64,000 bases of DNA, taken from NCBI GenBank assembly GCA_010405405.1, contig MU004230.1, positions 4,234,282-4,298,281 of the forward strand, given 5' to 3'. The notes beneath the pieces were generated by a model that saw nothing but the letters and a program-made list of their open reading frames with translations, did no database searches and was not told the origin of the DNA. Position 1 is the stretch's first letter, and the number at the start of each line of letters is the position of its first letter. The stretch comes from Microthyrium microscopicum. Its lineage: Eukaryota. Position numbers and translations under genes: made by a program. Below are positions 32,765 to 36,110 of this stretch, one piece after another.

Positions 32765-33405
32765 GATTATTATTACTATTAAAGGATTGGGCACTGGGGC
32801 TTTGGTCGCATTGGATCAAACAGATATCACGAAGCTAGATGGCAAAATGTCAAGAACTTATTATGCACACGGTATTCATTGCTTGTTTCCATAACCACAT
32901 TGATAACATACAGTTCCCCATCGCCAACACAGCCCGCCAGACAGGTAATGCAAGGATTGATGAACAGAAAGCTAAGCAACAAGAACGCTCATAACAGGCA
33001 AAACATAAAATCAATTTGAGCTGGTTGCATAATAACAACACAGGGAACAAGAGAACCCCTAGAAAACAAAACAGATGCACAGTAACCAATATCAGCTTTT
33101 TGAAGACGCATTACCGGTAGTCAATAATGTCCTTAGAGAAGACTGCGAAACCTTCACCGCAAAGAGATAAAGCATATTCTTTGCACCTAGCCAATATCGT
33201 AACACTCCCAGTCCCTTGTTTTTTCATAGCAATAACAAAGAGTCATGTAACTTAGTGGGTAGAAAAAGAGGAATCCTTCCAGCCGCTGGCGTAGAATATC
33301 GTACCATCGTATACACGGTCGAGGAGTTGACAAAGGCTCCTGTCGGAGATTACAATCCTTCCCAGACACAACTGTGCGTCAGCAATTCAGTAGGTGTCAA
33401 AACGA

Positions 33406-35056
33406 TTACTGCGCATGCAGAGGCTCGGCAGAAGCACCATTGGATGCAACATTTGGGAAGTCTGACTCGGAAACCTTGGGCTCCGAGGTCTTTGGCTCAG
33501 TCTTTGGGGCAGTTGGGAAGTCGTTTGGCTGCATGCTGGATCCGTTGACACGGCCACGGGCTTGACCAATCATCTCCTGAGCCTTCTGGGAGTATTCACC
33601 AGCGTAGCTCTTGACAGTCTCGGTGGCCTGCGACGTGTGTTGGGAAGCAAGATCACGAAGCTGGGAAGTCTGCTCGGTGATCAAGTTGGAGGCATGGTTG
33701 AGATGTCCGTCAATTAGTTCCTTGTTGCTGACGTAGACGAGAGGAGCGAGGAAAGTGACAATGGTGGAGAGGAGAGTAAGTCCCCAGAGAGGGAGCCACT
33801 TGATCAACCAGTAAGAAGCAAAGCTGGACAAGAATGCCTGATGGATATTAGTATAAAAACTTAATGATAAGCGGGTTACTTACGGCAGCGGTTGCCCAAA
33901 CGTTCTCAACGAAAATTATGCGCTGGAACTCAATGACGACAAAGTTGATCATCTGCTCAACATCATCCAAGAACCGCTCGAGACTCTCCTTGCGAATTGT
34001 GTAGTACTTTTTCGGACGCATTTGAGTAGCGAAGCCATTACCAAGTAGCTGTTTGCTGACAACCTCCACGGCGGCAGCACCTCCTAGCACAGTATACAAG
34101 GCTCGGAACGTATATCGCATAATGTCAACATATCGAGAGACGAAGATGAGGGAGACAATGGTAGCAAAGGTGATACCGGTTGCACGAGGATTCTTCCACT
34201 GAGACAAAGTTAGTCAGGGTATTAGATCATGGGATTAACAACACATACGCTCAAGAGGCGGTAGATTAGGGAGTGGTAGTCTATGAAGGATTAGCAAGAT
34301 CTTTGAATGTGTCATTAGGCAGCTGCATACGGGTCAAAGGTTGCCCGGTGGCAGCTGGCTGGGATGGAGTTTTCCGTGAATCGGCCAGATCTTGGAATTC
34401 TGCAGAAGTCTTTGCCTTTTCGCTAGAAACAGCTTGGCCAACAGGTCCTATTATGTGTGAGTTCATGGGTTCAATTATGGTTGCGTGATTGATCTGCAGG
34501 ATTTTGTTAGTATGAGGAAACTGGAATAGGCACGTAGATTGAATGATGAGAAGATGATGACAGAGCACAGATTGGATGTTTCCAGATCTGGACAAAGTCA
34601 TCAAAGATCTGATTGTGCTTTGACAAAACAGTAGATAGGACAACGGGAGATTGGGAGTTTTGGTGTACGTACCTCACCATTGACGACAGCGTCAGTGGCC
34701 TGTTGAGTAACAGGATGATTTGCGACGGTATCCATTGCAGATGAAGCAGCTATTGTAGGGACGAATGTTAGATGAAAAGTTGTAGGAGAATCGGGGGAGA
34801 TAAGGTTGAGGAGGAGTGGTAGACTGCGCACGGTCATTAGCGGAGGACTTTTTTTGGAGGAAGCGAGCCAACGGGGGCTTGCAGCAGATGGGATTAAGCT
34901 TACCTTACTGCTCACGATGGTGTCTTTTGCAGATTGCAGATTAGCAGATACGTTTGATGGAACCTGTGGAGCTTGTGGAGAGGAATGTTCTTGATGAGAA
35001 TCGACTACATGCTCGATGTGGGCAGGATCTTGGAGGGCGGCGTTATCGAAAGACAT
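33406..35056 (-). CDS. RTN1: Reticulon-like protein (Rtn1/RtnA/Cwl1)
   Basis: Exons 35056-34909, 34749-34678, 34447-34331, 34280-34249, 34198-33883 and 33838-33406 give ..GQPLTHYHSLIYRLLSWKNPRAT.. and a reticulon homology domain with two long hydrophobic hairpins. Confidence 0.92.
34448..34677 (-). other. [D5,6] stwintron 2 (nested spliceosomal intron)
   Basis: GTGAG|GTACGT..ACTAAC..CAG|A..ACTCAC..TAG. Removing the internal intron 34672-34494 (179 nt) creates donor GTGAGA of a 51-nt external intron. Confidence 0.75.
34750..34908 (-). other. [D5,6] stwintron 1 (nested spliceosomal intron)
   Basis: GTAAG|GTAAGC..GCTAAT..CAG|T..TCTAAC..TAG. Removing the internal intron 34903-34824 (80 nt) creates donor GTAAGT of a 79-nt external intron. 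Confidence 0.88.
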
Positions 35057-36110
35057 TTTGGAAGATGGTTCAGGAGATGCAGAGGATGCAGAAGATGCAG
35101 AGTGATGCAATGGGCTTTTAAGGCGACGTTCGATTTGGGTGAGGGGAATTGGGTGGATCTTGAAGTGTGCTATGTTTTTCTTGATTCCTGTCGATTGATA
35201 GCAGATTGCAGATTGCAGCTTGATGCAGCTTGATGATGCAGATGGATGTTTGTTTGCAGGAGTTTAAGGCGGGAGGGTGTTTGCTTAGGGGAAAGAAGAG
35301 TTTGCAAAGGTTAAGTAGTTGGGAGAGAGATCTTGAGGGAGTAATGGGGATACTTGTTCTCTTTAGAGGGAAGGAGCAGGTTAAGGTGGAACAAAAAGTC
35401 AAGAAAGAGCAAGAGCAACCAAGTCAACAACAAGATGACGCTATGCCAGCCAGCACGACCAAGCAGAGCCCATACGACCAGTTTCCAGAAGGAGCGAGCG
35501 GCCCAGAGCTCACACCAAAACCCAGCAATGACGGGGGCAGTGACGTCCGTGAACTCCTCTGTTCTTGCCTATCCCAGCAACTTTTGAAAGCTGCTCTTTC
35601 TATAATTAATGTACCCATAGCAACTGCAATACAGCGGTAAATATTTACTATTTCGCTTGTGAATTAGCGGAGCATTTGACTCTACAACATATTTGTAAGG
35701 AAGTTATAGTATCGAATTCCTGATGACAGGCTTTCAGTGTCTGGAGCATTCAATTGTTTTCTTGCGAGCTTGATATCCGTAAATAATCACGCTAGTTTCG
35801 CCTGCATGCTAAGTTCCAACTTTTCCCATGTGAAATTTAGCCTTTCAGCCACCAAAAACACAATTTCTCTCTCTCTCTCTTCAACAGAGAACACGTTTCA
35901 TATCTTAGTTTCACTTCACCAAATCTTGCTTTTGAACAACAAGAGAGAACAGGCACCAGCAAAATAGAAAAGTGACAATTCGTTGCATATTTCTAATTCG
36001 TCACACAATGCCAACCGCTAAAGCACTTCTAGCCAAAACATCACAACACCCACAGTACATGCTACTCGCTCATGCTTTTAACGCTTCATCCAAAACTGCA
36101 GTCTCGTAGC

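Follow-up and report, generated by a model that had tools for sequence, protein, structure and literature searches.

The reticulon-like gene that lies on the minus strand of contig MU004230.1 of Microthyrium microscopicum (Dothideomycetes, order Microthyriales; assembly GCA_010405405.1) raises the question of how its first two intervening sequences (IVS1 and IVS2) are removed from the transcript. Each of them opens with two splice donor words placed back to back. The gene occupies positions 33406 to 35056 of the window, by which we mean the whole stretch of 64,000 nucleotides (nt) that was analysed (positions 4,234,282 to 4,298,281 of the contig); all its feature positions are given on the minus strand. 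A reading of the letters by themselves (the original prediction) had proposed that both intervening sequences are [D5,6] stwintrons, that is, nested twin introns in which one intron interrupts the donor of another between nucleotides 5 and 6, that they are resolved by a four-step splicing cascade, and that such a double arrangement is not known to have been described. This proposal is partly supported: it is correct on the anatomy, with transcript backing for IVS2, and incorrect on novelty. We regard it as probable that the gene is an rtnA orthologue in which the first two intervening sequences are both [D5,6] stwintrons spliced in two steps. The feature is real; its kind is already known and is seen here in another order.

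Anatomy of the two intervening sequences

The described sequence anatomy was borne out base for base at both positions, and in both cases it is that of a [D5,6] stwintron. The units are the following.

34750..34908, minus strand: IVS1, a [D5,6] stwintron by its anatomy, 159 nt, opening with GTAAG/GTAAGC
34824..34903, minus strand: predicted inner intron of IVS1, 80 nt, GTAAGC..GCTAAT..CAG, from sequence and motif
34750..34823, minus strand: 3' part of the outer intron of IVS1, which together with 34904-34908 makes a 79-nt GTAAG/T..TCTAAC..TAG unit
34448..34677, minus strand: IVS2, the second [D5,6] stwintron by its anatomy, 230 nt, opening with GTGAG/GTACGT
34494..34672, minus strand: inner intron of IVS2, 179 nt, GTACGT..ACTAAC..CAG, excised alone in one transcript contig
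34448..34493, minus strand: 3' part of the outer intron of IVS2, which together with 34673-34677 makes a 51-nt GTGAG/A..ACTCAC..TAG unit

The inner unit of IVS1 has GCTAAT 9 nt before CAG/T, and its excision rebuilds GTAAGT; the outer unit has TCTAAC, then 14 nt, then the TAG acceptor, which is the one used in the mRNA (34909 joined to 34749). The inner unit of IVS2 has ACTAAC 9 nt before CAG/A, and its excision rebuilds GTGAGA. Both rebuilt donors thus carry H at position +6. The donor consensus given by Kavalecz et al. (2019, Sci Rep 9:9940; PMC6616335; our statements on this paper refer to its main text) is GURWGH, and its Methods state pairing by intron definition as a principle. With G at +6, the outer donors as they stand before inner excision (GTAAGG and GTGAGG) lie outside this consensus, and they fit it afterwards.

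In the mechanism that we propose, each intervening sequence would consist of two U2 introns, one of them small and complete and inserted into the donor of the other between its nucleotides 5 and 6. Splicing would begin with the inner introns (34903-34824 in IVS1 and 34672-34494 in IVS2), whose removal would turn the poor donors into the usable GTAAGT and GTGAGA, and the outer introns (79 and 51 nt) would then be removed via their own branch sites and acceptors. In IVS2 the inner CAG is the first AG after a strong ACTAAC, so intron-definition pairing would be expected to favour removal of the inner intron first. The two stwintrons would be processed independently of each other, with exon 2 normally kept, so that four splicing reactions would be spent on two intervening sequences. 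The 'four-step cascade' of the original prediction is probably best read as simply two independent two-step excisions, as in Helminthosporium solani.

The consequences of partial splicing for the reading frame were computed as well, and they agree with what had been stated from the letters: excision of inner intron 1 alone produces a frameshift to a stop inside exon 2, a skip of exon 2 stays in frame, and joining 34904 to 34493 yields, by arithmetic, a 51-nt GTAAGA..TAG unit. When inner intron 2 alone is excised, the 51 nt left behind keep the frame open and amount to a 17-residue insert. The whole of IVS1 (159 nt), like the 51-nt outer unit of IVS2, is in frame and stop-free, and retention of either one would lengthen the protein, not truncate it.

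Splice forms among the transcript contigs

Two sequencing runs were found, with the library type unrecorded for both, and one of them (X1) was used for splicing. Seven X1 contigs, all at least 99% alike, were placed on positions 33300-35400; X1 was taken as cDNA-derived because its contigs are without all five intervening sequences of the gene at GT..AG borders. The joints found are listed here with their depths.

34750-34908: joint skipping IVS1, 159 nt, depth 556.4
34448-34677: joint skipping IVS2, 230 nt, depth 3110.7
34281-34330: joint skipping intron 3, 50 nt, depth 3126.1
34199-34248: joint skipping intron 4, 50 nt, depth 3126.1
33838-33883: joint skipping intron 5, 46 nt, depth 3126.1
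34494-34672: joint skipping inner intron 2 only, 179 nt, depth 17.6, in one contig

Both outer junctions that had been predicted (34908/34750 and 34677/34448) are therefore in use, exon 2 is included, and an RNA without inner intron 2 only is present. The last of these has the form that had been predicted for the IVS2 intermediate. Its joint (34493 to 34673) has GT..AG ends and 28 letters on the shorter side, and the RNA is exactly the species expected after the first step of [D5,6] splicing. Other contigs of the same region were also recovered: an unspliced X1 contig covers 34466-34702 at a depth of 12.5, and two short contigs with the shared flanks of the 34448-34493 stretch have depths of 24.3 and 41. 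IVS2 could also be read with another inner acceptor, which would make its inner unit 85 nt long with TTTGAT as branch element; this reading was rejected, as no joint matching it occurs among the X1 contigs.

The second run (X2) is labelled as another organism and contributed a single 208-nt contig at 33424-33631 (depth 2.1), which is uninformative on introns. This contig agrees with the last exon at 99% or more of its letters, which could reflect sample carry-over or a very close relative.

Relatives in metagenomes

Metagenome contigs were scanned with an alignment of 14 homologues. This procedure led to 292 pattern matches, among which 125 relatives were confirmed and 80 loci retained. For these loci and the window, the start of exon 3 was located by a script, and the sequence ending at that acceptor was tested for a [D5,6] decomposition. 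The exon 3 anchor was missing in 5 of the 80 rows. IVS2 passed the decomposition in 10 rows, which represent 8 distinct loci (L035, L045 = L046, L047, L048, L058, L074 = L076, L077 and L080), with inner units of 51-65 nt and outer units of 47-55 nt. A further 19 rows (15 distinct) show no such decomposition, but an acceptor immediately precedes exon 3 in them; in 12 of these 15 loci intron 2 is canonical, two loci, L031 and L053, have a doubled donor whose rebuilt form carries G at +6, and the last one, L014, is treated below. The other 46 rows either resemble mRNA or are intronless at position 2. For the window and 25 of these loci, 26 sequences in all, the start of IVS1 was compared directly, and the doubled donor is found there in all eight passing loci. 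The double arrangement is hence present in eight distinct relatives. The outer junctions are confirmed in relatives by two pairs of spliced and genomic sequences (L043/L080 and L006/L031). The inner intron of IVS2 in the window, at 179 nt, is about three times as long as the 51-65 nt of the eight double-stwintron relatives.

The outer unit of IVS2 was examined for signs of coding. Over nine cases its length is 47-55 nt and is a multiple of three in only two, and stops occur in it in L014, L045, L074 and L077. A unit that is rarely a multiple of three and that holds stops in several relatives is not conserved as coding, and the RNA without the 179 nt accordingly reads as a splicing intermediate and not as a conserved isoform.

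Two mRNA-like relatives retain a single intron-like unit at one of the two positions. In L014, from which IVS1 and the other introns are gone, a 48-nt GTGAGA..CAG unit remains at position 2 (L014:277-324). In L024 a 55-nt GTAAGT..CAG unit remains at position 1 (L024:98-152), and its last ~45 nt give a good alignment with the 3' end of IVS1 in L039 (249 nt, L039:2756-3004). Both L039 and L040 carry a 249-nt [D5,6] IVS1, and the inner intron is absent from the aligned L024 unit. As far as can be judged from these sequences, L014 looks like the stwintron-2 intermediate of a relative, or like a species with a plain intron there, and L024 looks like a stwintron-1 intermediate, or like a species that lost the inner intron.

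Motif statistics

The published search motif for [D5,6] stwintrons, GTRWGGTRWGH(25,120)DYTRAY(4,24)HAGH(25,120)DYTRAY(4,24)HAG (PMC6616335), was applied to both strands of the 64-kb window. It gave a single match, exactly at 34908-34750 (IVS1), against an expectation of 0.075 (mean of 200 dinucleotide-preserving shuffles of the window). A relaxed form of the motif also matched at 14281-14057 on the minus strand (GTATG followed by GTGTGA); this candidate was rejected, being without convincing coding context in three frames. The bare doubled-donor word is unenriched in the window, with 2 occurrences against 1.03 expected for its strict form and 5 against 3.54 for its relaxed form, so the case rests on the placement of the words at RNA-defined intron starts and on conservation.

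Three features of IVS2 fall outside the strict motif: GTACGT, its inner donor, has C where W is required, the outer branch element ACTCAC is not DYTRAY, and the distance from inner donor to branch is ~155 nt where the motif allows up to 120. The inner donor GTACGT is nonetheless used, as the X1 joint demonstrates. The motif is a search aid and not a definition of the class.

Alternative explanations

Several observations weigh against two-step splicing at both positions. IVS2 has no match to the strict motif. A joint removing only 34824-34903, as expected of the IVS1 intermediate, was found in none of the X1 contigs. Missing joints carry little weight in this material, because contigs drop rare variants and depth is a single figure per contig; the interior of IVS1 (34750-34908) has zero X1 contig cover, and nothing was drawn from that. 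The cDNA origin of X1 is itself deduced from its contigs and not from a record of the library. Moreover, contigs give forms and not the order of reactions: the RNA without the 179 nt may be a dead end, or, its 51 retained nt being open, it may be a minor isoform, and one-step removal could run as a parallel route, since the mature junction is identical. That this RNA lies on the pathway, and that IVS1 is also removed in two steps, is what the anatomy and the experiments on orthologues suggest.

The alternative that survives best, though we consider it unlikely, is that each intervening sequence is mainly removed in one step, with the inner sites used occasionally; the RNA without the 179 nt would then be a minor mRNA whose product carries 17 additional residues within its disordered N-terminal region. 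The failure of IVS2 to fit the strict motif and the missing IVS1 intermediate would both suit it. So would the depth of the mature joints, which is about 180 times that of the inner-only joint (3110.7 against 17.6), but low abundance is expected of a splicing intermediate, and the unspliced precursor is equally rare (depth 12.5). Similarly, in M. microscopicum the retained 51 nt preserve the frame and contain no stop, but the unit is not conserved as coding in the relatives, for the lengths and stops given above. One-step removal would also have to start from outer donors with G at +6 at both positions, and in IVS2 it would have to pass over an inner acceptor that is the first AG downstream of a perfect ACTAAC placed 9 nt before it. 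Finally, the two-step route has been demonstrated experimentally for orthologous stwintrons (PMC6616335).

Regulated skipping of exon 2 through cooperation of the two stwintrons, joining exon 1 to exon 3 in frame, is in our opinion very improbable. Inner donor 1 (34903) would pair with inner acceptor 2 (34494), rebuilding GTAAGA, or, in the manner known from Neurospora, with outer acceptor 1 (34750), rebuilding GTAAGC; the rebuilt donor would then pair with the outer acceptor of IVS2. Both introns are in phase 1, the GTAAGA..TAG unit measures 51 nt and the product is in frame, and skipping of exon II by way of the rtnA stwintron is documented in Aspergillus niger and Neurospora crassa (PMC6616335). 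However, none of the joints that such skipping would leave (34903-34494, 34903-34750 and 34908-34448) occurs among the X1 contigs, which is weak evidence given that contigs drop rare variants. The peptide of exon 2 is well conserved, and in all mRNA-like relatives shown with their N-terminal context an equivalent of exon 2 precedes GP(V/A). Furthermore, pairing over 410 nt past three nearer acceptors contradicts the intron-definition rule (PMC6616335). The route across the two stwintrons is arithmetically possible and unsupported, and is mentioned as speculation. Equally slim is the chance of a broader version, in which the stwintrons are interdependent (inner donor 1 occasionally pairing with a stwintron-2 acceptor to give GTAAGA, or in the Neurospora-type way to give GTAAGC), so that the conserved exon 2 of 24 codons is conditionally skipped in frame, and in which the RNA lacking inner intron 2 only serves in addition as a minor mRNA with a 17-residue insert. 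If this were true, the pair of stwintrons would constitute a three-way switch for the disordered N-terminus of the reticulon.

That the doubled donors are chance sequence without a role in splicing is hardly credible: the bare word is indeed unenriched in the window, but both words stand exactly at RNA-defined intron starts in one gene, the inner intron of IVS2 is actually excised, and the arrangement recurs in the eight relatives and is reported across Pezizomycotina (PMC6616335).

The gene and its exons

The identification of the gene as a reticulon, made in the original prediction, is confirmed by matches to the Pfam family Reticulon (PF02453) on two exons (61.1 and 35.2 bits, gathering cut-off 31.8). 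The last exon is 100% identical to P0001, a protein of 317 residues from M. microscopicum. Judging by sequence, the gene is the reticulon-like rtnA orthologue of this species; the phases of the introns and the number of five intervening sequences are consistent with the gene model described in PMC6616335, the downstream positions having been compared by description. Its exons and canonical introns are as follows.

34909..35056, minus strand: exon 1, coding part, with ATG at 35056, 148 nt and hence ending in phase 1; an X1 contig joins 34909 to 34749; frame checked
34678..34749, minus strand: exon 2, 72 nt, phase 1/1, encoding the conserved TASSAMDTVANHPVTQQATDAVVN stretch; present in the spliced contig and kept in 14 aligned homologues
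34331..34447, minus strand: exon 3, from X1 contigs and frame check
34281..34330, minus strand: canonical intron 3, 50 nt, from X1 joint and sequence
34249..34280, minus strand: exon 4, 32 nt, from X1 contigs and frame check
34199..34248, minus strand: canonical intron 4, 50 nt, from X1 joint and sequence
33884..34198, minus strand: exon 5, first part of the reticulon domain (PF02453, E 1.5e-16)
33838..33883, minus strand: canonical intron 5, 46 nt, GTAAGT..CAG, from X1 joint (cut +1)
33406..33837, minus strand: exon 6, coding part including the stop codon, with the end of the reticulon domain (PF02453, E 1.4e-08) and the C-terminal tail; 100% identity to P0001

Joined together, the six exons make a coding sequence of 371 codons plus stop. 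The deposited protein P0001 begins at the ATG of exon 2 and is without exon 1; it reads ..VVNG/PVGQ.. across the outer junction of IVS2. The upstream exon 1, which adds 54 residues to reach a total of 371, is backed by the spliced contig and by homologues: the mRNA-like ones (P0003, P0004, P0005 and others) reach further upstream, and their ..SAKDTIV.TASSAM.. corresponds to exon 1 joined to exon 2. The first exon of this rtnA orthologue is therefore shown to be missing from the deposited protein model. The 1019-nt contig that holds exons 1 and 2 follows the genome colinearly over 344 nt or more ahead of the ATG (35057-35400, minus strand) and continues for ~454 more letters past 35400; either the 5' leader is long, or the contig overlaps a transcript from a neighbouring gene or region.

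Comparison with known systems

Kavalecz et al. described the rtnA [D5,6] stwintron across Pezizomycotina. The two-step intermediate was shown experimentally in Aspergillus nidulans, the stwintron was confirmed in A. niger, Botrytis cinerea, Trichoderma reesei and N. crassa, and evidence from expressed sequence tags was given for Tuber melanosporum. A second [D5,6] stwintron, at intron position 2 of rtnA, was predicted in many Dothideomycetes, Xylonomycetes and Lecanoromycetes; the dothideomycete groups with two rtnA stwintrons are Pleosporales, Hysteriales and Botryosphaeriales, and both stwintrons were demonstrated in H. solani (PMC6616335). The double arrangement has consequently been in print since 2019. 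What is known of stwintrons is unchanged by our analysis, because arrangement, mechanism and taxonomic spread were all published then. Microthyriales are not named in the main text of PMC6616335 (0 occurrences of 'Microthyri'), although its supplementary species table may list the species, and none of the papers searched mentions both stwintrons and Microthyrium. The present case extends the known occurrence of the second rtnA stwintron to a further order, Microthyriales, and gives this stwintron transcript-level support in a second dothideomycete.

In comparison with H. solani and the other Dothideomycetes, the locus of M. microscopicum has the stwintrons in the same gene and at the same two phase-1 positions, in the DNA that encodes the disordered N-terminus; in both the nesting is between donor nucleotides 5 and 6, with an exon in between. 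The kind of support differs, being one assembled contig in M. microscopicum and reverse transcription PCR in H. solani. With regard to intron 1 of rtnA in A. nidulans (AN5404), IVS1 fits the motif that was used to find the AN5404 stwintron, and the sizes of the units are close (80 + 79 nt in M. microscopicum, 75 + 76 nt in A. nidulans). At position 2, A. nidulans has a canonical intron, following an exon II of 24 nt, whereas M. microscopicum has a stwintron, following an exon 2 of 72 nt.

In A. niger and N. crassa, exon II is skipped when the inner intron of stwintron 1 is spliced at alternative 3' sites, in combination with a canonical intron 2 (PMC6616335). The Results, the Discussion and the Methods portion on the motif search of that paper describe no route via an inner acceptor belonging to a second stwintron. 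As in the 3'-extended secondary stwintron of these two species, both introns of M. microscopicum are in phase 1, so that a skip would stay in frame; in contrast to them, neither the skipped product nor the secondary intermediate was seen among the X1 contigs. The 'dual intervening sequence' of Onygenales, with its second-order intron, resembles the locus studied here, as we read it, in that the 5' end of rtnA is processed by four U2 splicing reactions in succession. The two differ in their layout: in Onygenales a fourth intron encloses both the stwintron and intron 2, with loss of exon II, whereas M. microscopicum has two separate stwintrons and keeps exon 2 in the mRNA.

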